DNA from: Tannerella sp.
GTDB taxonomy: Bacteria > Bacteroidota > Bacteroidia > Bacteroidales > Tannerellaceae
Length of the DNA: 64,000 nucleotides
Assembly (NCBI GenBank): GCA_031276675.1
Contig: JAISMO010000114.1
Span: forward strand, 301-64,300
Direction: 5' to 3'
In this document: positions 298 to 52,148 of the stretch, one piece after another
Layout of the letters: each line of letters opens with the position of its first letter
Numbering within the stretch: position 1 is the stretch's first letter
Notes under the pieces: model-generated
Seen by the model: the letters and a program-made list of their open reading frames with translations, nothing else
Told to the model about the DNA's origin: nothing
Databases searched by the model: none
Made by a program: the position numbers and the translations under genes

Positions 298-2295
298 ATG
301 AAGATGTTGATTCAAAAAATCAGACAGGTATACTTTTTTTACCTCTTCATGTTTACACTGATTTTTGGGGTAATTCTGTATGATGTAACGGGCTTTAAAA
401 GTATGGACGAAGTTGCAAGCGTCCTGTTGCTGATACTGTATATCCTTTTCATCTGCCATGAAAGGAAACGGTTCACGGTGGAAATCCCGCTTATCGTGTG
501 CATTTTTCTGTTCTATCTCTGCTATTCTTTTTACCTGGCATATAATTCCCCAGGCGCTGTGGTCATGGATTTTCTGGTGCAAATCAGACCCTTCCTGACC
601 TTCTTCATGGTGTTGCAGATAGCTCCTTTCTTTTCCGCTTCACAAAAAAAGCTACTGAAACGGATTTGTCTTTACATCTGGCCGCTTTTTATCCCTGTCG
701 GCATTTACGGATTTGTGAATCCGTCTTTTTTCAAATCCATCCTGGAGCAGGAGGCCAATTATGTGTCGGGCATCGTTTGCCTGTCGCTCGTTTACCTGTA
801 TTGCAGTAATTTTACTGTAAAGGAAGGGTTTACCTTCCTTTACATGCTGACCACCGGCATGATGGCCATGCACTCCGAGTTTCAAGGATTTTACTTTTTA
901 ACGATCGGGATACTCCTGTATTTTCAGGACGTACGTGTACTTAAGTCTCGCTGGAAGACAGGTTTCGCCCTGCTGATCGTGTTTGTTTTGATCGTTTATA
1001 TTTTGAAATCACAGGTTGCCGGCTATCTTTTTCCACCCGATGCGGGAAACGGCGGTCCCGATTTTACGGCACGTTCCATTCTCTACTGTTCGGCCATTGA
1101 GGTACTGAAAGACTTCATTCCCTTCGGCAGTGGTCTTGCCAGTTTTGCAACCGAACTTTCGGGAAAGTATTATTCCCAGATTTATGTAGCTTACGGGCTT
1201 AATGCCATGGAGGGATTCTCGCCCCGGAACTGGCTTTCCGTATCCGGTTCCTATTACCCGTCGCTGGTTCAGTTTGGTATGTCCGGCATACTGCTTTACC
1301 TGTTCTTCTGGCTTCACAGTGCGAGCAAAATGCTGGTCTGTTTCAAACGTGCGGAAGACCTCCAGTGGTTTGTCATCACGTTGACAACAATCTGCTTTAT
1401 TTTTATCGCGAACATATCGGATGCGTTTTTTTCAAGCAACAAAGGTTTTTTCATAATGATGTTTTTGGGGCTTCTTGCCGGAAAATACAGAAAAAGCGTC
1501 GGCAAGGCGGTTGTGAACACAGGCGAAGAATCGGTTGAGACAGAGGAATACAGGTTTGTCGAAAAGACAGTTGTTCCGCCGGAAATACCTGATCTGTTTC
1601 GGAAGATACCGGATATTCCGCCGGTCGGAAAAATCGAACCGGTTGCTGTCGTAAACCAACCTGAATATGAAGAGGAGGAGGACGAATATGACGGAGACGA
1701 AGACGGGGAGTATGATGAAGACGAAGCATACGGCGACGGAGAAACGGATATTCCGCCGGTTTCGCCGGTCGGAAAAGTCGAACCGGTTGCTGTCGTAAAC
1801 CAACCTGAATATGAAGAGGAGGACGACGAATATGATGGAGACGAAGACGGAGAATATGATGAAGACGAGGCATACGGCGACGGAGAAACGGAAACATCCT
1901 GTCCGGACGAAGCCACAGAAGCATCTGCATTAGCTATATCCGATATGCAGCAGCAGGAAGAAACGGAGATTATTCCGGAAACAATCGGAGGAAATGAGGA
2001 TGGGGAAAATGAACCGGTTAAAAAAGAGGAGAGCGACATGGCCGTATCGGAATCGAATGAAGAAATGTTGGAAATCCCCTTGAAAGATGAGGATTTTAAA
2101 GCTGATTTTCCTACCTTTGAGCCGCTGTTGGACGGAGCGGATGTTGAATCGGCGCAGGAAACAACTGAAAACAGGGATATTCGGAAACATTCGGAACCGG
2201 AAAAGCGAAACGAAGAAGACTACATCCGCGAAAAACCGGCAGCCACAGACGAAGAAACAAATGAAGACGATGTCCCCATTGACTATATAATATAA
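298..2295 (+). CDS. Wzy / O-antigen-ligase-like polytopic membrane protein with long acidic repeat-containing C-terminal tail
   Basis: Track ORF 274..2295; I prefer the first ATG (MKMLIQK) downstream of the promoter box. The first ~400 aa contain many hydrophobic segments. The stretch FGSGLASF...SYYPSLVQFGMSGILLYLFFW resembles the Wzy_C/O-antigen ligase loop region. The last ~260 aa are D/E-rich. Confidence 0.7.
   Translation: MKMLIQKIRQVYFFYLFMFTLIFGVILYDVTGFKSMDEVASVLLLILYILFICHERKRFTVEIPLIVCIFLFYLCYSFYLAYNSPGAVVMDFLVQIRPFLTFFMVLQIAPFFSASQKKLLKRICLYIWPLFIPVGIYGFVNPSFFKSILEQEANYVSGIVCLSLVYLYCSNFTVKEGFTFLYMLTTGMMAMHSEFQGFYFLTIGILLYFQDVRVLKSRWKTGFALLIVFVLIVYILKSQVAGYLFPPDAGNGGPDFTARSILYCSAIEVLKDFIPFGSGLASFATELSGKYYSQIYVAYGLNAMEGFSPRNWLSVSGSYYPSLVQFGMSGILLYLFFWLHSASKMLVCFKRAEDLQWFVITLTTICFIFIANISDAFFSSNKGFFIMMFLGLLAGKYRKSVGKAVVNTGEESVETEEYRFVEKTVVPPEIPDLFRKIPDIPPVGKIEPVAVVNQPEYEEEEDEYDGDEDGEYDEDEAYGDGETDIPPVSPVGKVEPVAVVNQPEYEEEDDEYDGDEDGEYDEDEAYGDGETETSCPDEATEASALAISDMQQQEETEIIPETIGGNEDGENEPVKKEESDMAVSESNEEMLEIPLKDEDFKADFPTFEPLLDGADVESAQETTENRDIRKHSEPEKRNEEDYIREKPAATDEETNEDDVPIDYII
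1612..1890 (+). repeat. In-frame tandem duplication (135 nt + 144 nt) encoding the acidic module DIPPVGK(I/V)EPVAVVNQPEYEEE.DEYDGDEDGEYDEDEAYGDGET
   Basis: Copy 1 is 1612..1746 and copy 2 is 1747..1890. By eye they differ by about 6 substitutions plus a 9-nt insertion (GTTTCGCCG) in copy 2. Confidence 0.9.
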
Positions 2296-3817: not shown

Positions 3818-3895
3818 GTGGTTTTTCATAATAGTATTAGATTTAAGGTTAACAAATTGATTAAGGGATGTCGAGAGACATCCCTTAATATTTTC
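3818..3895 (+). ncRNA. candidate ~75-nt sRNA A (orphan promoter plus intrinsic terminator)
   Basis: It starts a few nt after the box at 3806..3813. It ends at the perfect hairpin TTAAGGGATGTC-GAGA-GACATCCCTTAA (3861..3888) followed by TATTTT. The only ORF is 14 codons long (ATG 3816) and probably overlaps the TSS. Confidence 0.3.
3861..3894 (+). terminator. intrinsic terminator-like hairpin
   Basis: 12-bp perfect stem, GAGA loop, T-rich tail. Confidence 0.55.
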
Positions 3896-4096
3896 AGACC
3901 TTTCCTGCCCTGAAAACTCCCTTTTTATAACTATCAATGAAAAGACTGGCGATCATTGTTTCTGAATGATACTTTTCATTTGGAGACACTTTTTTTATCT
4001 GATTCTTTGGGCAGGCAAACCTGAAACAGAGAGAAAAAACAAAGTTTGCTTCTCCACGCTGTATACTTTCAACGAATAGCCTGCAGGACTGCCTTT

Positions 4097-8686: not shown

Positions 8687-9634
8687 TTACAGTTCTTTCT
8701 CGATTTTGTATTTGTTGCGTTGCGGCGAATTGCGCGAAATCAGTTCACCAAGAAATCCGGCCAAAAACATTTGTGTTCCCATGACCATTGCCGTCAACGA
8801 AATATAGAAATAGGGCGAAAGGGTCACTAACGGCCGCAAGTCGCCGGCCATCAGGGAAAGCAGTTTCATGACAAGTACGTAAACCAGCGCCACAAAACCG
8901 ATCAGAAACATCGCGCTGCCCCACAGTCCGAAAAAGTGCATCGGTTTCTTTCCGAACTTGGAAGTGAACCACAGGGTGATCAGGTCCAGATAGCCGTTCA
9001 CGAAACGGTTCATTCCGAATTTTGTCTTTCCGTATTTCCGCGCCTGATGCTGTACGACCCTTTCTCCGATTTTGCCGAAACCTGCAATCTTGGCCAGATA
9101 GGGGATGTAGCGGTGCATATCATTATATATTTCAATGTTTTTGACCACTTCGTTGCGGTAGGATTTCAATCCGCAGTTGAAATCGTGCAGGGATACGCCG
9201 GAAAACTTCCGGGCCGTTGCATTGAACAATCGCGTCGGAATGGTTTTCGACAGCGGATCATATCGCTTTTTCTTCCATCCGGATATCATGTCATACCCGT
9301 CTTCTTTGATCATTCGGTACAGTTCGGGTATCTCGTCCGGGCTGTCCTGCAAATCGGCGTCCATCGTAATCACCACATCGCCTTTGGCGCGCTCGAAACC
9401 GCAATGCAAGGCCGGTGATTTTCCGTAATTCCGGCGGAATTTGACGCCTTTTACGTGCGGTGACTGCATGGCCAACTGTTCGATGATTTCCCATGAATCA
9501 TCCGTACTTCCGTCATTTACATATAAAATCTCATAACTGAAATGATTTGCTTCCATCACCCGTTCGATCCAGGCCTGTAATTCGGGGAGCGATTCCGCTT
9601 CATTGTACAAAGGTATTACTACAGAAATATCCAT
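8687..9634 (-). CDS. family 2 glycosyltransferase, GtrB/polyprenol-phosphate hexosyltransferase-like
   Basis: Internal start MDISVVIPLYNEAESL, then YVNDGSTD, DADLQD, and two C-terminal TM segments. The upstream part of the track ORF (to 9811) lies beyond the promoter box at 9656. Confidence 0.9.
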   Translation of the reverse strand: MDISVVIPLYNEAESLPELQAWIERVMEANHFSYEILYVNDGSTDDSWEIIEQLAMQSPHVKGVKFRRNYGKSPALHCGFERAKGDVVITMDADLQDSPDEIPELYRMIKEDGYDMISGWKKKRYDPLSKTIPTRLFNATARKFSGVSLHDFNCGLKSYRNEVVKNIEIYNDMHRYIPYLAKIAGFGKIGERVVQHQARKYGKTKFGMNRFVNGYLDLITLWFTSKFGKKPMHFFGLWGSAMFLIGFVALVYVLVMKLLSLMAGDLRPLVTLSPYFYISLTAMVMGTQMFLAGFLGELISRNSPQRNKYKIEKEL

Positions 9635-9737: not shown

Positions 9738-10026
9738 ATGAGAAAGAGCGTATTATTTTCAGTGTTTCTGGCGACAGTCTGTTCAGCGGCTGTGAGCGCC
9801 CAAAACAACACCTTGACGAACAGGGAAAAGGAGGAAGGATGGAGCTTGCTGTTCTGGCGCCGAACCTCTTCCTGCCGCAGGTTGACCGGCGGTTATGAAA
9901 ATGGCGCCTTTCAGGGCAACAACTGTCGGGCAGCATGGTTTTCTTCACAGAAAGTCCCGGTTCGCCGATGGCGCTTTCATAGTCTGAGCGGGATTTCATG
10001 TGCACCGGCACATCCATCAAAAAACA
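9738..10026 (+). pseudogene. N-terminal remnant of a DUF1080 (3-keto-disaccharide hydrolase-like) secreted protein
   Basis: MRKSVLFSVFLATVCSAAVSAQNNTLTNREKEEGWSLLF is a signal peptide followed by the typical DUF1080 opening (L(T/S)..EK.EGW..LF). After that the reading frame loses all family resemblance and runs into the 21-bp array. Homology is judged from memory of the family. Confidence 0.35.
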
Positions 10027-10250
10027 CGCCGCTCCGGGTTAACTCTGCGCCGCTCCGAGTTAACTCTGCGTGGCTCCGAGTTAACTCTGCGCCGCAAAAA
10101 CTTAACTCTGCGCGACGCAGACTTAACTCTGCGTCGCAAAAACTTAACTCTGCGTCGCTCCGAGTTAACTCGGAGTCACGCAGAGTTAACTCGGAGCGGC
10201 GCAGAGTTAACCCGGAACGATAAAAACTTAAGTCGGAATGGCGCAGGTTG
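10027..10250. repeat. tandem array A: ~10.5 x 21-bp units centred on GTTAAC/CTTAAC
   Basis: Units read in exact 21-nt register. There are six GTTAAC, three CTTAAC and one CTTAAG. It contains a perfect 40-bp inverted repeat (10033..10072 / 10177..10216) and an 18-bp perfect palindrome CTCCGAGTTAACTCGGAG (10158..10175). Confidence 0.95.
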
Positions 10251-10297
10251 AAAAATATTGCGCTCACAGTTAGCCACATACAGTTTCAACAGAAAAA

Positions 10298-10591
10298 TCA
10301 GATGGCTTTTTCTATGTCCCACATAAAGGCGTGCAGTCCCTGCGCCTGGTTTTCCAGGTCCAGGGTACGAAGCTGGGCAAGCAGGTCGTTGGCCCGATCG
10401 TCGGGGACAACGGTCAGCAGGGCTGAGTTCAGCGTTGGCCAGGCGTGGTTGCCGTAGTGCGGTTCGCCCGTGTGGTTGCCGCGTCCCTGCACTTCGTCCC
10501 ACAGGGTGAAGCCGCGGACATTCATCCGGTCGAGCAGGTCAATCAGGCGTTCCTTGAGCGCCTGATTGAAGGGTATGAAGATCGCTTTCAT
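10298..10591 (-). CDS. PG0541-family transporter-associated protein (small PII-like partner of RND pumps)
   Basis: A 97-aa product starting MKAIFIPFNQALKERL. Its start overlaps the RND stop by 4 nt. The track ORF extends spuriously to 11119. Confidence 0.8.
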   Translation of the reverse strand: MKAIFIPFNQALKERLIDLLDRMNVRGFTLWDEVQGRGNHTGEPHYGNHAWPTLNSALLTVVPDDRANDLLAQLRTLDLENQAQGLHAFMWDIEKAI

Positions 10592-13500
10592 TGTTTGGCG
10601 GATTTTTTCAGTTTGCCTTGTTTGAAGAGTTTGCGAATTTTTTTCCGGCGGCGTCGGACGCCGTTGGCGCCGAAGATGGAATACAGCGCCGGGACGTAGA
10701 ACAGGGTCAGCAGCGTGGAGAACGACAGTCCGGCAACGACGGCGATACCCATCGGCTGCCACATTTCCGAACCCGCTCCGCGCGGGATGGCCATCGGGAT
10801 CATGCCCAGTACCGTTGTGGCCGTCGTCATCAGGATCGGACGCAGACGCGAACGTCCTGCCGCAATGATGGCCTTGTCGATGGACATGCCCCGCTCTCGG
10901 TTCAGGTTGGCATAGTCGATAAAGACGATGCCGTTCTTCACCACGATGCCGATGAGCATCACGATACCGATCATGCTCATCAGGCTGACGGGCTTGCCGG
11001 TGAGCATCATGCCCAGCAGTACGCCGGCCAGTCCGAAGGTCAGCGAGAGCACGATGATGAACGGGTAGGTGAGCGATTCGAACTGCGCCGCCATGACGAT
11101 GTACACCAGGATGACGCACAGGATCATCAGCAGTCCCAGGTCGCTGTTACTTTCCTGCTGGTCTTCGTAGGATCCGCCGATGCGGATGCCGATTTCCGCC
11201 GGGAGACGTCCCTCGGCGCGCATGTCGGCAATGGCGCTTTCCGTATCCGCGACCACGTCGCTCAGGGCGGCGTTGTAGAGCGAGCCCTGCACCTTGTTCA
11301 CGCGCTGGCGGTTCTGACGGTCGATCTGGGGGAGCGTATTCCGTTCCACCACCTTGCCCAGCTCGCGGATGCGAATCGGTACGCCCTGTGAGTTGTAGAC
11401 CTGAATGTTCTCGATTTCTTCGATCGACTGGCGGTAGCGCTCGTCGTAGCGCACGACGATGTCATACTCGTCACCGTCTTCGCGGTATTTCGAGGTGTAG
11501 GAGCCGTTGATGCGGTTGCGTACATAGGTCGCAGCCGTGGCGGAGTTCAGTCCGTTCTCGGCCAGTTTCTCGCGGTCGAAGTCCACCTGATATTCGGTGC
11601 GGTAGTCCTGGCGGCTGATGACCAGGTCGCGCAGTCCCCGGACAGCGCCCAGGCGCGTTTTCAGTTCCGCTGCAATGGCGTCGGTCTGCGCCAGGTCGTG
11701 GCCGTAGATTTCCACCTCCATGTCGCTGGCGCCTGCGCCCATCATACCGCCGCTGCCGCCGGGGGTGATGGTGTACTTGTAGAGTTCGGGCATGTGCTCG
11801 AAGTCCTGTCGCAGGCCGTCGGCGATGTCGTAGATGCTGCGGTCGCGCTCGTCGGGTTCGGTGCAGCGCAGGCGGTAGGAAATGAGGTTGGTGGCATTGG
11901 CCTGCATGGCGGCAAAGGTGTTGTCGTCATCCGCCTGTCCCACGTCGAAGGAGCGCGTTTTGACTTCGGGATACTTGGCGCGAATCAGGCTGTCGATGTG
12001 CAGCGCCATGTCGCGCGCCACTTCCATCCGCGTGCCGGTAGGCATGTAGACCTCGGCCGTAATCATGCTGTTGTCGGAGGCGGGCATGAAGTCGAACTTG
12101 AGCAGCCCGACGGCCGGCGCCATGATGAGGAAGAAGGTGGAGAAGCAGACGAGCACCGTTTTCCAGCGGTTCCGGACGCAGCGGTTGACCACGCGGCCGT
12201 AAAAGGCGTCCAGGTTGTCCAGTCCTCTTTTCACCGGCTGATAGAGCCGGTCGAACATCCGCCCCTGCGTGGGGGTGAGCCGCAGCATCTGCGAGCAGAG
12301 CATGGGTGTGAGCGAAAGGGCGACGATGACCGAGACGGTCACCATGATGGTCACCATCCATCCCAGTACGCCGAACATGACGCCGGCCAGTCCGGTGGTC
12401 ATGGTCAGGGTGAAGAAGACGGCGATGATGGTCAGCGTCGAGGCAATCACGGCCACGCCCACTTCGTTGGTTGCGTAGATGGCTGCCTGGCGGGGCGAAC
12501 TGCCGCGTTCGATGTGCCGGGTGACGTTCTCGAGTACGACGATGGCGTCGTCGACCACCAGCCCGATGGCGATGGTCAGGGACGAGAGCGAGATGATGTT
12601 CAGGCTTCCTCCGGTAGCCATCAGGTAGATGAAGGAAGCGATCAGCGAAATCGGGATGGCCAGCACGATGATAATCGTTGCCCGCCAGCGTCCGAGAAAG
12701 AAGAGCACGACGAGCACGACGAAGATGATGGCCAGCAGGATGGTCTCGGTCAGTGAGTCGATGGATTCGCGGATGAAGTCGGACGAGTCCATCAGCAGGG
12801 TCAGCTGCACGTCGGGCGGGAGCGTCTGCTGCAGGCCGGGTATCAGCCGGTTGACCTTGTCGGCAATGGACACGGTATTGGCGCCCGACTGTTTCTGTAC
12901 GATGACGATAGCGCCCTTGACTTCGTTGGTATAGGCTTCCTGGATGCGGCTCTCGATGGTGTCGCTCACGGCAGCTACATCGCGCAGGTAGACGTTGCGC
13001 CCGCCGCGGCTGCCGACGACCACGTTCAGCAACTGTTCGCTGGCCTTGAACTCGCCTTCGATGCGCAGGGCGTAGGTTTCGGTGCCGATGTCGAAGCTGC
13101 CGGCCGGGACGTTCAGGTTTTCGGCCTGGATGATGGAGGCGATTTGTTCGACGGTCAACTGATAAGCCTCGAGTTTTTCGGGGGCGACGTTGACCTGTAT
13201 CTGCCGCTGCGGCGCGCCGGTCACGGTGACGGCGCCCACGCCCTCGACGCGGTTCAGCGGGTTGGCCACCTTCTCGTCCAGGATCTTGTAGAGCGCGTTG
13301 ACGTTCTCGCGCGCCGTGGCCGAATAGATGACCACGGGTATCATGTCCATGCTGAACTTGAAGATAAGCGGGTTGTTGATGGCGTCGGGCAGCGAGGAGC
13401 GTACCATGTCGATTTTGTCGCGCACGTCGTTGGTGGCGGCGTCGATGTCGGTGCCGTAGTTGAACTCGATGGTGACGAGCGACATGTTGTCCTTCGACTG

Positions 13501-13746
13501 CGAGGTGATCTCCTTGAGGTCTTCGACGGTGTTGAGCACGTCTTCCAGCGGCCGCGTGACGTTGGTCTCGATATCCGAGGCGCTGGCGCCGGGGTAGGCC
13601 GTGATGACGGTCAGCATGTTGGACTCGATGTCGGGAAAGAGGTCTATCGGCAGACGGGTAAAGGAGAAGAGGCCGATGATGGCCACGCCGATAAATATCA
13701 GCGCGGTCGTGACGGGTTTCTTGACTGCGGATGCATATAAGCTCAT
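10588..13746 (-). CDS. efflux RND transporter permease subunit (AcrB/HAE family)
   Basis: 1052 aa with 12-TM architecture and typical AcrB blocks (ALIFIGVAIIG, VVDDAIVVLEN, MLIGIVVKNGI). Confidence 0.97.
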   Translation of the reverse strand: MSLYASAVKKPVTTALIFIGVAIIGLFSFTRLPIDLFPDIESNMLTVITAYPGASASDIETNVTRPLEDVLNTVEDLKEITSQSKDNMSLVTIEFNYGTDIDAATNDVRDKIDMVRSSLPDAINNPLIFKFSMDMIPVVIYSATARENVNALYKILDEKVANPLNRVEGVGAVTVTGAPQRQIQVNVAPEKLEAYQLTVEQIASIIQAENLNVPAGSFDIGTETYALRIEGEFKASEQLLNVVVGSRGGRNVYLRDVAAVSDTIESRIQEAYTNEVKGAIVIVQKQSGANTVSIADKVNRLIPGLQQTLPPDVQLTLLMDSSDFIRESIDSLTETILLAIIFVVLVVLFFLGRWRATIIIVLAIPISLIASFIYLMATGGSLNIISLSSLTIAIGLVVDDAIVVLENVTRHIERGSSPRQAAIYATNEVGVAVIASTLTIIAVFFTLTMTTGLAGVMFGVLGWMVTIMVTVSVIVALSLTPMLCSQMLRLTPTQGRMFDRLYQPVKRGLDNLDAFYGRVVNRCVRNRWKTVLVCFSTFFLIMAPAVGLLKFDFMPASDNSMITAEVYMPTGTRMEVARDMALHIDSLIRAKYPEVKTRSFDVGQADDDNTFAAMQANATNLISYRLRCTEPDERDRSIYDIADGLRQDFEHMPELYKYTITPGGSGGMMGAGASDMEVEIYGHDLAQTDAIAAELKTRLGAVRGLRDLVISRQDYRTEYQVDFDREKLAENGLNSATAATYVRNRINGSYTSKYREDGDEYDIVVRYDERYRQSIEEIENIQVYNSQGVPIRIRELGKVVERNTLPQIDRQNRQRVNKVQGSLYNAALSDVVADTESAIADMRAEGRLPAEIGIRIGGSYEDQQESNSDLGLLMILCVILVYIVMAAQFESLTYPFIIVLSLTFGLAGVLLGMMLTGKPVSLMSMIGIVMLIGIVVKNGIVFIDYANLNRERGMSIDKAIIAAGRSRLRPILMTTATTVLGMIPMAIPRGAGSEMWQPMGIAVVAGLSFSTLLTLFYVPALYSIFGANGVRRRRKKIRKLFKQGKLKKSAKQ

Positions 13747-13764: not shown

Positions 13765-14793
13765 TTATTGAATGACCTGGACAGGGGTGCCGTCAATCAG
13801 GCGGGCATGTCCGGCAGTGACGATTTCATCGCCCGGTTCGATGCCCGAAAGGATTTCAAAGGATTCACCCAGCCGCTGTCCCGGTTCGACACGGCGGTAG
13901 CGGGCCATGCCGTTCTGCACGATGTAGACGTACTTGTCGTTGGCGCCGGCCTGTTTCTGCACGGCGACGTCGGGCACGACGACGCTCTCGCCCGCGCCGA
14001 AGTTGAGCGTCAGACGGGCATACATTCCCGGTCTCACTTTCATGTCGCGGTTGTGGATGGCCACCTCGACGCCGAACGTATGGCTGGCCGCGTCAACGGT
14101 CGGGTAGATGAGGCTGACCTTGCCGGTGAAGACTTCGCTGCCGTAGACGTCGAGCCGGATGTCGACCGGCATCCCGACGCGCACCTTGGTGAAATACGAT
14201 TCCGAGACGTTGATAATCACCTTCAGCAGGTTCAGCTGCTGGACGGTGAGGATGGGTTGCTGGGCAAAGACGTTGCCGTTGTCATAATTGCGTGCCGTGA
14301 CTACGCCGCCAATCGGGCTGCGCAGTTGCGTATTCTCCTCCAGGTTGCGGATGACCGCTTTGAGGACGTCGATTTGCGTCTTGATCTGGTCGACCTGCTG
14401 CTGGGCAATGCCGCCGACTTCGAGCAGCGCGCTGTAGCGTTCGTAGTCGCGTTCGAGATTGGCCAGCTGCGTCGTCTGCTGTTGCAGGTTCGACGATTCC
14501 ATCCGGACGAGCAGCTGGTCTTTTGCAACGCGGTCGCCGATTTCGACGTATATCTTCTCGATACGCCCGGGCATGGTGGGTGTGATGTGATTGATCACGT
14601 CGGCCTGTACGTTGCCGGTGTAGGTCACAACGTCGTTGACGGTCTGCAACTGGGCGACGGTCGTATGCACCTTCACACGCGTATCCGCCGTTGCCGTTTC
14701 GTTTGCCGCCTGCTCCCTGTTGCCGCCGCAGGCGGTCAGCGCGCCGGTGGCCAGGAGGAGTGCGATTCCTTTGAATACATTCTTTCGCTTCAT
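13765..14793 (-). CDS. efflux RND transporter periplasmic adaptor subunit
   Basis: Internal start MKRKNVFKGIALLLATGALTAC (lipoprotein signal), a coiled-coil hairpin region and beta-barrel domains. The track ORF extends to 15180 into tolC. Confidence 0.93.
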   Translation of the reverse strand: MKRKNVFKGIALLLATGALTACGGNREQAANETATADTRVKVHTTVAQLQTVNDVVTYTGNVQADVINHITPTMPGRIEKIYVEIGDRVAKDQLLVRMESSNLQQQTTQLANLERDYERYSALLEVGGIAQQQVDQIKTQIDVLKAVIRNLEENTQLRSPIGGVVTARNYDNGNVFAQQPILTVQQLNLLKVIINVSESYFTKVRVGMPVDIRLDVYGSEVFTGKVSLIYPTVDAASHTFGVEVAIHNRDMKVRPGMYARLTLNFGAGESVVVPDVAVQKQAGANDKYVYIVQNGMARYRRVEPGQRLGESFEILSGIEPGDEIVTAGHARLIDGTPVQVIQ

Positions 14794-14953
14794 GCTTGTA
14801 TAATTATTAATTGTCAGTGATGGATGGAGAAAAACCGTACCCTCCCGAAGTGTGCGGGGCTTCCCCGGCTCCCTGCCGGAGAAAAGCGCTGCTTCGGCGC
14901 AGCGGATTTTCTTCATCGATAGAAATTTATCATTTACCATAATCATTATATCC

Positions 14954-16450
14954 TCATTTTTCGTTCCAGTCTTCGAAGCCGAGCGTTTTATCAAGGTCGG
15001 CTTTGGAGGTGAGGAAGTTGTAGATGGCCTGGTTGAAGGCGAGGCTGGCCTGTGTGAGGCCAAGCTGCGCGTTGTTGAGGTCAAGCAGGGTTCCCATGCC
15101 GGTGTCGTAGAGTTTGCGCGAGATTTCGTAACCTTTCTGCGCCTGCGCCACGACGTCGCGGGTCGAGAGTACCTGTTCAACGTAGTTGGTCATGTTGTTG
15201 ATATTGTTGTTGATCGCCAGGCGAAGGTTGCGCACGACGTCTTCGCGCTGCCACTTCATCTGCTCGAGCGAGACGCGCGTCTGGCGTACGTCGTTGCGTT
15301 TCCTGAAGCCGTCGAAAAGCGGGATGGAGATGCTCAGTCCGATGGTCGAATAGGGGTTCCATCGGTAGTCGCCAAAGCGGAAATCATTGTTCATGGACAT
15401 GTACATGTAATTGCCCGTCAGCGCGATGGTCGGGTAGTACTGAGCCTTGTAGAGTTCGAGCGTTTTGCGGAGCTGCTCGTGCTGAAGGTCGAACTGCCGG
15501 AGGTCGGAGTTGTAAGCCAGCGAAGGGTCAACGGCGAGAATTTCGGCATACAGCCCCTCCTCGTAGTCGAGCAGGCTGCCCTTGACGGCAATGGCCTGAT
15601 CGATGTCGATGCCCATCAGCGCCTTGAGCGAAAGCATGGCGAGGTTGCAGGCATTCTCGGTCTGGATAAGGTCGGGCTTGATGTTTTTGACGTTGACGTC
15701 GGCGCGGATGAGGTCGAACTCGGAGACAAGTCCCTGCTGAAACTTGTCGCGGATGTTGTTATAGCTCAGGATCGCGTTGTTGTAGCTTTCCTGCAGCACG
15801 GCGCGGGCGTCCAGGGCCAGCAGCACGCCGTACCAGGCTTTGCGGACGGCGTTCACCATGTTGATTTTCGACGACCGGGCGCTCTCGACGGCCAGTTCGA
15901 CCTCAAGCCCGGAGATTTCGAGACTCTTCCAGAGCGCCGGCGCCACCACCGGCCAGTTGATGTTCACGCCGCCCGTCCAGTTGTTGTCGCGTCCGACGGC
16001 AATGCCCTCGTCGCCGGACGAAACCGGAGCCGGCGGCGTATTGGCGGCGATGTTCCGGGCAAGCGTGCCGGGAACGTAGCCGGGCGCCGTCTCGGCAAAC
16101 GTCTGTTCGGCTCCCCCCACAAGCGGCGCCATGATGGGGCTGAGCATCTCCTCCATGTTGAACGCGTTGTCCATGTACATGACCTGCTTTTTGAGCGTGC
16201 GGCTGTATTGCCCCACGGCATCAATCTGCGGGTAGAGGGAGGATTCACTCGACTTGCGTGCATACTTTTTCTTCTGTACCTCCAGATCGGCCACTCTGAC
16301 CGACGGGTTTTCGCTCAGCGCGATTTCAATGGCCTGCCCCAGGCGGAGCGCCAGCGTGTCCTGCACGCCTCCGACCGCCTGAAGCGGGACAAAAAGAAAC
16401 AGCCACATGAAGGCTGTCCCTGCCGTTTTCCTGTTTACTAACCGTATCAT
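14954..16450 (-). CDS. TolC family outer membrane efflux protein
   Basis: 498 aa with a signal peptide and two OEP repeats (LSLEQ..., LLDLNNAQL...). First structural gene after tetR. Confidence 0.92.
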   Translation of the reverse strand: MIRLVNRKTAGTAFMWLFLFVPLQAVGGVQDTLALRLGQAIEIALSENPSVRVADLEVQKKKYARKSSESSLYPQIDAVGQYSRTLKKQVMYMDNAFNMEEMLSPIMAPLVGGAEQTFAETAPGYVPGTLARNIAANTPPAPVSSGDEGIAVGRDNNWTGGVNINWPVVAPALWKSLEISGLEVELAVESARSSKINMVNAVRKAWYGVLLALDARAVLQESYNNAILSYNNIRDKFQQGLVSEFDLIRADVNVKNIKPDLIQTENACNLAMLSLKALMGIDIDQAIAVKGSLLDYEEGLYAEILAVDPSLAYNSDLRQFDLQHEQLRKTLELYKAQYYPTIALTGNYMYMSMNNDFRFGDYRWNPYSTIGLSISIPLFDGFRKRNDVRQTRVSLEQMKWQREDVVRNLRLAINNNINNMTNYVEQVLSTRDVVAQAQKGYEISRKLYDTGMGTLLDLNNAQLGLTQASLAFNQAIYNFLTSKADLDKTLGFEDWNEK

Positions 16451-16660: not shown

Positions 16661-17263
16661 CTACGGCCTGAACTGCTTTTTCACGCTGTAGCGTTCCAGC
16701 AGCTTCCGTCCGGCGTCGGTGCATATTCCGCGGATAAAAACAAGGAAGAGCGTATTGTGCACATCCGTGCGATTATACTTGCAGAACATTCCCGAAGGCT
16801 GTAGCATGTCCATTTGTTCGTGCGCCAGCAGGGCGATGATGTCGAAGTTGATATCGGGGCAGAAAACGCCTTCTCCTACACCCTTTTTCAACAGGCGCAT
16901 CGACATGTCCAGAAAATGCTGCCTGTTGCGCATTATGCATTCGCAGGCTTCCGGATAGCGCCGGATGTCCTGATAGAACTCCTCGCAGAACCGGACAGGC
17001 TGGCTCATCAGCTTCTCGTTGAAAAGAAGGAATATTTCCAGCGCCGTATACGTTTCCTTCGTCAGACGGGAGAGACACTCGCCGGCGCGGATGAAAAAAG
17101 TGTCGAGCATCTGCATGAGCAGCATTTCCTTGTCGTCGAAAAAACCATAGAGGGTACGTTTCGACACACCGGCCTTGCGGGCGATGTCGTCCATACTGAC
17201 CTTCCTGATGCCGCTACGGGCAAAGAGTTCGATCGTTATAGCGATGATATGTTCCTTCAACAT
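16661..17263 (-). CDS. TetR/AcrR family transcriptional regulator
   Basis: Internal start MLKEHIIAITIELFARSGIRKVSMDDIARKAGVSKRTLYGFF is a TetR HTH. The upstream extension of the track ORF crosses the promoter box. Confidence 0.9.
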   Translation of the reverse strand: MLKEHIIAITIELFARSGIRKVSMDDIARKAGVSKRTLYGFFDDKEMLLMQMLDTFFIRAGECLSRLTKETYTALEIFLLFNEKLMSQPVRFCEEFYQDIRRYPEACECIMRNRQHFLDMSMRLLKKGVGEGVFCPDINFDIIALLAHEQMDMLQPSGMFCKYNRTDVHNTLFLVFIRGICTDAGRKLLERYSVKKQFRP

Positions 17264-28100: not shown

Positions 28101-28215
28101 CAGACAAAGGGTCTTTGACCGAGCGGACAAAGGGTCTTTGACCGGACGGACAAAAGGTCTTTGTCCGGGCGGACAAAAGGGCTTTGTCTGAACGGACAGG
28201 GTGTTGGGCGAAAGG
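28101..28215. repeat. tandem array B: ~5 x 23-bp units (CGGACAAAGGGTCTTTGACCGAG-type)
   Basis: The units are 28101-28123, 28124-28146, 28147-28169 and 28170-28192, plus a degenerate fifth. Unit 3 holds 8-bp inverted arms CGGACAAA / TTTGTCCG. Confidence 0.9.
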
Positions 28216-36568: not shown

Positions 36569-36686
36569 AGAGCTGTTTTCTGATTGAACAAATTTCCAAA
36601 GGAAAATATTTTGCGATATTTTCTCTTCCACAAAAATTGAATCGTATATTGACAGTGAAATGAGTGGATTTGCTTCGATTCGGGAG

Positions 36687-36755
36687 GCTTGGACGCCTCG
36701 GCCCAACATGCTTGGACGTCCCGACCCAACGGGTTTGGGCGCCTCGGTTCAAAAA
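36687..36755. repeat. tandem array D: 3 x 23-bp units
   Basis: GCTTGGACGCCTCGGCCCAACAT / GCTTGGACGTCCCGACCCAACGG / GTTTGGGCGCCTCGGTTCAAAAA. Short inverted arms are present (GAGGC..GCCTC, CCCAA..TTGGG). Confidence 0.8.
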
Positions 36756-51701: not shown

Positions 51702-51938
51702 AGCAATATTCGGCGATTTCCCGGCAGGCCTCAGCAGGAGGGTACATTTCAAAGGTCGCAGCCCGGACACGGATGAAGTGCGGTGCGCCTTTACAGTTCA
51801 TCCGCCCCGGAGGTGCGGGATGGCGGGGTGAGACCCGGAACAGCCTCCCTCCGTGCGGCAGCAGACAGCGTCTGTTTTGGCATCACTCCCTGTTTTCCGG
51901 AACAGGATCCGGACAAAACCGGGGAGAAAAACGGAAAA

Positions 51939-52148
51939 ATGCTTCTTCCTGTCGGCAGAACCGCAAAAACGGACGGATTCATGCTTCTGCCGAGCGGCAG
52001 AACCGCAAAAATGGGCAAAATCATACTTCGTACCAGCGGCAGAAGCATAAAAACGACGATTTTCATGCTTCGTACCAGCGGCAGAACCGCAAAAAAACGC
52101 GGAAACACGATTCTGCCGCAAGTATGAAGCATAAAAACAAAAATAAAC
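51939..52148. repeat. tandem array C: ~5 x 42-bp units
   Basis: The units are 51939-51980, 51981-52022, 52023-52064 and 52065-52106, plus a degenerate fifth. The conserved core is CGGCAGAACCGCAAAAA. Unit 2 carries the inverted arms TTCTGCCG-AG-CGGCAGAA. Confidence 0.9.

Follow-up and report, generated by a model that had tools for sequence, protein, structure and literature searches.

A self-complementary 21-bp minisatellite at the 3' end of an efflux operon in a Tannerella genome

Introduction

What is a tandem array of short palindromes doing just past the last gene of an efflux operon? The locus lies in a 64,000-nt stretch of a Tannerella sp. contig, which we call the window. The initial annotation of this DNA listed the repeat units, drew attention to a cluster of GTTAAC sites in a 21-bp register, and offered three roles for the array: a set of iterons bound by a protein, a bidirectional terminator made of several hairpins, and a target cluster for a GTTAAC-specific restriction-modification (R-M) or methylation activity. 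Here we describe the anatomy and predicted folding of the array, the genes that surround it, the corresponding position in related genomes, and the recurrence of its core in other Bacteroidales, and we then weigh what the array may be.

Results

Ten palindromic units form one large palindrome

Reading the array in 21-nt steps from position 10027 gives precisely the eleven strings that had been listed before, ten full units followed by a degenerate eleventh (Table 1). Each unit consists of a 3-nt spacer and an 18-bp palindrome, CNCNGAG-TTAA-CTCNGNG, in which arms of 7 nt enclose TTAA on the left and on the right. All ten units share this unchanged TTAA centre and keep exactly to the 21-bp phase; in register, the centres read GTTAAC six times, CTTAAC three times and CTTAAG once. 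Tandem Repeats Finder reports a period of 21 with 8.8 copies and 79% matches over 10027-10211, together with overlapping higher-order periods of 42, 63 and 84. The left arms are of three kinds (A, CTCCGAG; B, CGCAGAG/C; C, CAAAAAC) and the right arms of two, the reverse complement of B in units 1-6 and that of A in units 7-10. Units 1-3 have the form A-B', and units 8-9 have the form B-A' and are mirror images of units 1-3.

Half of the 12 GTTAAC sites in the 64-kb window fall in the array (10038, 10059, 10080, 10164, 10185 and 10206), all six within 174 bp and at spacings that are multiples of 21 bp. Outside the array, 6 sites are observed where a Markov model expects 4.8. About 0.014 sites would be expected in 190 bp, and simple Poisson arithmetic puts the chance of six there at about 1e-14. 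The in-register cluster is thus as real as first reported and far above Poisson expectation, although it exceeds chance trivially, because the units that carry it are tandemly repeated.

The three kinds of left flank that had been described are also real, but the dominant higher order is a global inverted repeat rather than an interleaving of subtypes. The whole array forms one inverted repeat, centred in the TTAA of unit 5 at 10124/10125. An inverted-repeat search gave 95-nt arms with 84% complementarity and zero gap, and in a reverse-complement self-alignment the outer arms differed by one mismatch in 54. The longest exact complementary run, 40 bp, lies at the array centre, compared with at most 19 bp at any other centre. 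Moreover, the odd G in unit 1 (CCGGG) has its counterpart in unit 9, where a C stands (CCCGG), and the variable spacers follow the same mirror symmetry. The large palindrome is therefore more than a by-product of stacking palindromic units. Its symmetry is broken solely by the three CAAAAAC arms.

When folded, either strand of the array gives a stem of about 85 bp, a near-perfect hairpin over about 190 bp. The predicted energies were -179.1 kcal/mol for the minus strand (z = -18.05) and -164.4 kcal/mol for the plus strand (z = -17.6), and none of 200 shuffles folded as well in either case. The two strands differ in one respect: the plus strand has every A-run of the array and of its left flank, and U-runs consequently occur solely in minus-strand RNA, which is the sense of the neighboring operon. 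A search of the array against Rfam 15 returned generic long-hairpin (miRNA precursor) models alone, far under their gathering thresholds.

Table 1. Positions of the array, its parts and the genes discussed in the text
Feature	Position	Strand	Basis or remark
Whole array	10027-10250	.	Ten 21-bp units (10027-10236) and a degenerate eleventh; unit reading, Tandem Repeats Finder
Left outer arm of the large palindrome (units 1-3, A-B')	10034-10087	.	Reverse-complement self-alignment against 10162-10215
Right outer arm (units 7-9, B-A'), mirrors the left arm	10162-10215	.	Carries the mirrored unit-1 variant, CCGGG / CCCGG
Inner palindrome around unit 5	10111-10138	.	Inverted-repeat search and self-alignment
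A5 tract of unit 4 (CAAAAAC arm)	10095-10099	+	One of three; the others at 10137-10141 and 10221-10225
A6 run just left of the array	10019-10024	+	U6 in operon-sense RNA, 8 nt past the base of the giant stem
PG0541-family (P-II-like) transporter-associated protein, 97 aa, last gene of the operon	10298-10591	-	Pfam P-II; NCBIfam PG0541_fam, E = 3e-34, above cut-off
RND pump	10588-13746	-	Pfam
Membrane-fusion protein (MFP)	13765-14946	-	Pfam
Outer-membrane factor (OMP)	14954-16450	-	Pfam
TetR regulator	16661-17263	-	Pfam
Family-2 glycosyltransferase (GT2), next supported gene	8687-9634	-	Co-directional with the operon; ATG at 9634
Orphan ORF, 161 aa	9738-10223	+	Signal-peptide-like start, then the array as heptads (PLRVNSA...)
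Solitary N6_N4 DNA methylase, 292 aa	40348-41226	+	Best solved relative M.PvuII (N4-cytosine enzyme), E = 2e-32

The array lies between an efflux operon and a co-directional gene

The minus-strand operon is ordered TetR-OMP-MFP-RND-PG0541, and the array starts 48 bp past the stop codon of the PG0541-family gene. An exact-protein look-up found no identical copy of this P-II-like protein on record. Ahead of GT2, the minus strand carries a TAtcTTTG box (9663->9656), which we take to be a Bacteroidetes-type -7 box (consensus TAnnTTTG) and hence a putative promoter of the gene's own.

Does a gene approach the array from the other side? The orphan ORF that runs into the array on the plus strand had been read as a decayed gene. 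We found no Pfam match for it, and its sole match in a collection of 5.8 billion proteins is itself, which leaves that reading unsupported; most likely, the ORF is not a gene. One particular candidate, a decayed DUF1080 gene, was suspected from 'EGW..LF' starts that we presumed to be typical of the family, and it was rejected when three frame reconstructions gave no Pfam match (E <= 10) and no homologue. Since GT2 is on the minus strand and the plus-strand ORF is unsupported, the gap that holds the array is a co-directional spacer between operon and gene. The array does lie at the 3' end of the RND operon, but the gap is not a convergent one.

Among the approximately 50 window ORFs scanned, none encodes a transposase, recombinase, invertase, integrase, Y1/RAYT, rep or par protein. 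These ORFs are mainly housekeeping genes (his genes, aconitase, IDH, LptD, gyrB and metG among them), and several have no Pfam match.

Relatives carry different hairpins at the same position

We compared the array with the orthologous position in relatives, using the P-II-like protein as the anchor. The closest homologues, at 71-84% identity, come from JGI metagenome samples, and the named ones belong to metagenome-assembled genomes (MAGs) of Tannerella sp. Remoter homologues are labelled Candidatus Symbiothrix, Azobacteroides and Ordinivivax, and we take these lineages to be termite-gut Bacteroidales. None of the six orthologous loci (L120, L121, L123, L244, L245 and L246) carries a GTTAAC array, and each of them has a hairpin device just past the stop codon of the P-II-like gene. 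In L245, it is a textbook terminator, a 13-bp stem with 9 GC pairs followed by TTTTTC, which begins 8 nt past the stop. A GC-rich hairpin of about 14-18 bp occupies the position in L244, and a hairpin with a stem of about 20 bp does so in L120. In L246, a hairpin and then a T-run can be seen by eye, although the terminator scan raised no flag on the operon strand. The remaining two loci are repetitive. In L121 (4520-4615), four TTAGTGG heptamers are followed by four inverted copies, giving a stem of about 34 bp, and in L123 (4651-4800), long inverted repeats built of 5-10-nt repeats precede a 24-bp x 6.4 array with the palindromic core CCCACACGTGTGGG. The architecture at this position is the same while the sequences differ. 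This pattern suggests that structure is retained there, and not the sequence GTTAAC.

Heptamer repeats directly past stop codons recur in the genomes of these relatives. Contigs of L120, L121, L122 and L244 stop 49-491 bp past the P-II-like gene, which fits repeat- and hairpin-rich DNA that breaks short-read assemblies.

Could the array itself serve as the terminator? On the operon strand, the sole terminator-like match between the operon and GT2 lies inside the array (minus strand, 10121->10107), where TCTGCG-TCG-CGCAGA is followed by GTTAAGTTTT. This internal hairpin together with GUUAAGUUUU makes a weak site, with a stem of 6 bp. The array as a whole is no textbook terminator, because its U6 run falls 8 nt past the base of the stem. 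Rho-independent terminators consist of a stable hairpin with a U-tract 0-2 nt after it in the sense RNA. Like them, the array lies just past the last stop codon, has a GC-containing stem, and has U-runs on the sense strand. It differs in the length of the stem (about 85 bp as opposed to 5-15), in the displacement of its U6 by 8 nt, and in being repetitive. The proposal of a multi-hairpin bidirectional terminator therefore survives in one half only. The hairpins are strongly supported and their position is that of the canonical terminator in the orthologous locus L245, but bidirectionality is not supported, as U-runs are confined to RNA in the sense of the operon and the array has no real gene running towards it on the plus strand.

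The palindromic core recurs in other Bacteroidales

The 10-bp palindromic core of the units, GAGTTAACTC, recurs in other Bacteroidales repeat families, which we found by scanning for phased GTTAACTC. A first scan of a genome collection, for three TTAACTC separated by 12-16-nt gaps, gave 119 matches. Most of these proved to be repeats of the 7-bp heptamer TTAACTC in cyanobacteria and Bacteroidales, and about 15 of the 119 were informative once filtered. A similar array is found in a Tannerella sp. MAG (L080), with 10.9 copies of a 21-bp unit, CTCGGAG-TTAA-CTCCGAG plus CGA, that is identical to the window palindrome at 16 of 18 positions and differs by a symmetric C/G swap. The L080 array has no privileged centre, and its flanks share nothing with those of the window array. 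Two further loci, L066 and L143, have 5-7 cores with unrelated spacers.

The largest group comes from rumen Prevotella, in which at least about 90 loci carry 3-4 GAGTTAACTC cores at precisely 22 bp (L034, L036, L060, L064, L092, L115, L117 and L124-L243; for example, L149 976-1027 and L171 45-96). Their spacers resemble GATnGATCGTTT in either orientation. These triplets are intergenic, are often framed by CCAAAAACCGT...ACGGTTTTTGG (A5...T5), and have an overall dyad symmetry; there are several per genome, and many lie less than 100 bp from a contig end. They have no Rfam match. We found no recurrent neighbor gene, the largest cluster comprising 4 of 93 loci, and by crude ORF calls the surrounding genes are tandem at 27 loci, divergent at 9 and convergent at 3, with 50 loci at a contig edge. 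The triplets behave as a dispersed REP/MITE-like family that is large and apparently undescribed. They resemble the window array in the 10-bp core, the spacing of two helical turns, the intergenic location and the dyad symmetry. Unlike it, they have a 22-bp period, only 3-4 cores, a spacer motif of their own, many loci and unrelated neighbors. Common descent of the triplets and the window array is a candidate explanation on this comparison. As evidence that the core has a function, its recurrence is weak, because the loci were found by searching for that very core.

Elsewhere in the 64-kb window, the core does not occur, nor does it in the TetR promoter region. The operon's own regulator, TetR, was considered as a protein that might bind the array and was rejected, as there is no core-like palindrome near its gene. 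A strict unit-pair pattern gave 0 matches in metagenomes, where the source contig itself was not recovered either. A protein database searched with the array translated in its two open frames returned only the window's own ORF, and searches of plasmids, phages and viral contigs found nothing related to the array. The array has one copy in the 64-kb window, and the public collections searched gave no second copy of its unit pair.

Discussion

What kind of element is this? At about even confidence, we favor a non-coding, lineage-specific structured minisatellite that lies in the 3' untranslated zone of the efflux operon and replaces an ordinary terminator. The array would have grown by replication slippage or unequal exchange among its self-complementary units. 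Template switching on a hairpin template (the quasi-palindrome route, known as a source of mutation) may then have made its arms near-identical, and such switching would explain why the variant of unit 1 is mirrored in unit 9. If the array acts at all, it probably acts by structure and not by its GTTAAC sequence. The operon transcript is predicted to carry a very long stem-loop, with U-runs within it and just after it. This giant stem-loop would end or pause transcription and shield the 3' end from exonucleases, and the downstream GT2, with its putative promoter, would be insulated, as with REP/BIME in enterobacteria. That the array does terminate transcription or stabilise the operon mRNA is a claim that we consider evenly balanced on the sequence evidence. 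Several points weigh against our preferred reading. The displaced U6 run departs from the geometry of an intrinsic terminator, and the internal hairpin-plus-U site is weak; termination requires far less than a perfect inverted repeat of 54 bp, which should moreover be genetically unstable; the data are equally well explained by a neutral by-product; and GAGTTAACTC recurs in other Bacteroidales families, so its sequence could matter.

REP/BIME elements of Enterobacteria are the closest functional analogy. The roles proposed for them are protection of mRNA 3' ends, termination and protein docking. The window array is likewise made of short imperfect extragenic palindromes, located at the 3' end of an operon, with both orientations in one cluster. 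However, REPs occur as hundreds of dispersed copies and are tied to RAYT, whereas the array occupies one site in 64 kb, and its units abut head to tail with a fixed 21-bp period, unlike REPs. No RAYT (Y1_Tnp) gene is present among the approximately 50 ORFs scanned, and the units have no GTAG/CGTC tag of the kind described for tagged REPs (PMC3733652).

Is the array functional at all? It may be a neutral or selfish minisatellite, a by-product of slippage and template switching that persists in dispensable intergenic DNA. We consider this rather unlikely. In its favor, apart from the similar unit of L080 (16/18), no related array turned up in the collections searched, the metagenomes gave no match to the unit pair, the translated array retrieved its own ORF alone, and plasmids and phages gave no match. 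Complete sequence turnover at the orthologous position and the presence of several unrelated arrays in the same 64 kb also fit this reading. Against neutrality stands the strand asymmetry, with A-runs on one strand and U-runs confined to operon-sense RNA, as does the outcome of the terminator scan, in which there is no other candidate 3' of the operon; neither point is decisive.

A sequence-specific alternative is that protein dimers sit on each GAGTTAACTC, spaced by two helical turns so that all face the same side of the DNA, as at a REP/BIME-like or a centromere-like (sopC-like) site. The invariant TTAA in ten of ten units and the exact 21-bp phasing are what such a protein-binding iteron array would look like, and the same core occurs at 21-23-bp spacing in L080, L066, L143 and at least about 90 rumen Prevotella loci. 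The F plasmid sopC, plasmid parC and replication iterons are also tandem palindromic sites in helical phase. Those systems, however, belong to plasmids or phages and neighbor a par or rep gene, while the array is on a housekeeping stretch of chromosome with no such gene. The window likewise has no gene for a candidate binding protein, a transposase or a recombinase. The core is degraded in 4 of the 10 units and occurs nowhere in the window outside the array, the orthologous sites of relatives use quite other sequences, and its recurrence elsewhere is largely a matter of ascertainment, as GTTAACTC was the search string. Overall, we regard protein binding as doubtful.

Similarly doubtful is a broader, joint proposal, in which GAGTTAACTC repeats phased at 21-23 bp would constitute a Bacteroidales-wide superfamily recognised by one protein, either REP/RAYT-like or nucleoid-associated. 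Its members would be the window array, the Tannerella L080 array, the L066 and L143 arrays, and the Prevotella elements with 3-4 cores; the protein would bind the palindrome on DNA or a UUAA-loop hairpin in RNA; and the 190-bp palindrome of the window would be an expanded, possibly invertible member.

Could the palindrome be a switch? In an inverton-like arrangement, the 54-bp arms would flip the asymmetric 74-bp centre, move the U-runs, and so toggle read-through into GT2. Near-perfect inverted repeats do surround an asymmetric centre, and GT2 is a downstream gene of the surface-glycan type. We nevertheless judge a switch very improbable. The window has no invertase or integrase, GT2 has a putative promoter box of its own, the centre is short and mostly self-complementary, and only one orientation was seen.

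Comparably slim is the chance that the array is a minisatellite embedded in a MITE, that is, a non-autonomous transposon with internal repeats. The precedents, which are also the nearest analogues described for the array, are BrickBuilt (23-nt) and PgRS/MITE464 (41-nt) of Porphyromonas gingivalis (Klein et al. 2015, PMC4596501), spacer-less tandem repeats that lie inside MITEs with a leader, a tail and IS5-type terminal inverted repeats (GAGACCTTTGCA-like), and that have ten to twenty dispersed copies per genome (PMC4596501). Both they and the window array are found in Bacteroidales, are built of units of about 20-40 nt repeated directly in tandem with no spacer, and are always intergenic; in both, the copies are imperfect, long stem-loops are predicted, and there is no Rfam match. 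Short A5 runs on either side of the array would also suit a MITE. However, the sequences share no similarity, the unit length differs (21 nt, against 23 or 41), and the near-perfect palindrome of the whole array is a feature of the window that is not described for BrickBuilt. The array flanks (9950-10026 and 10251-10297) have neither a leader or tail nor IS5-type terminal inverted repeats, and for this reason we do not place the array in the BrickBuilt/PgRS family. There is no transposase in the window, and the flanks of the L080 array share nothing with the window flanks.

Finally, six HpaI-type sites in 174 bp and two open frames per strand through the array might suggest a target cluster for GTTAAC-specific R-M or methylation, or a coding heptad-repeat protein, but we judge these readings highly improbable. 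Other palindromes are avoided in the window, but GTTAAC shows no such deficit beyond the array (6 vs 4.8); the sole methylase is nearest M.PvuII; the array ORFs have no family or homologue; and the third frame is filled with TAA stops. The idea of a restriction or methylation target, raised in the initial annotation, is thus not supported. GTTAAC is the mere centre of the 18-bp palindrome and is missing in 4 of the 10 units. Most likely, the array is not a target of any GTTAAC-specific protein or restriction system. Within the window, some palindromes are strongly avoided: GAATTC (1 observed, 16 expected) and GATC (175 observed, 289 expected) are depleted, there are no CTAG-centred hexamers, and GAGCTC and GGGCCC are absent. 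This suggests that R-M pressure falls on these sites and not on GTTAAC. The N6_N4 methylase is the only DNA methylase found in the window. It is flanked by genes for an acetyl-CoA hydrolase and an aminotransferase, with no endonuclease gene evident beside it, and CAGCTG shows no depletion (17 vs 16).

Why does such a locus matter? If the preferred structural reading is right, a self-complementary minisatellite has taken the place of a terminator-position hairpin in these termite-gut Bacteroidales. Arrays of this kind turn over completely between relatives whose P-II-like proteins are about 80% identical. They probably break metagenome assemblies, they yield spurious ORFs, and they would make good strain markers. 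Should the array terminate or stabilise the efflux-operon mRNA, it would offer a REP/BIME-like mechanism in a phylum that has been little studied for such elements. The Prevotella family of GAGTTAACTC triplets is perhaps worthier of follow-up than the window array itself.

Other features of the window

The window holds three further intergenic tandem arrays, whose sequences are unrelated. At 28103-28198, a 23-bp unit (GGACAAAGGGTCTTTGACCGAGC) is repeated 4.2 times and is itself a hairpin (fold z = -3.6). The ACAAAGGGTCTTTG part of this unit resembles the IS5-type terminal repeats TGCAAAGGTCTC / GACAAAGGTCTC that are listed for P. gingivalis BrickBuilt and ISPg elements (PMC4596501), possibly by coincidence. 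A 42 bp x 3.9 array at 51931-52095 contains TTCTGCCGAGCGGCAGAA and A5-7 runs (fold z = -6.8), and a 23 bp x 2.7 array at 36685-36747 has hairpin-prone units. Four such arrays, the efflux-operon array included, in 64 kb is an unusually high density.

Another repeat lies in coding sequence. Within the ORF at 298-2295, a 144-bp x 1.9 repeat (1619-1892, plus strand) with nested 21-bp repeats encodes an acidic stretch of the EYEEDED type in a 665-aa protein that has no Pfam match. The plus strand at 3818-3897 scores 61.9 bits against RF04319, the FopS sRNA family of Bacteroidetes, whose gathering score is 56. This site holds a GTTAAC, yet it is unrelated to the array, and a link between the two was rejected. 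The FopS match supports the assignment of the sequence to Bacteroidales.
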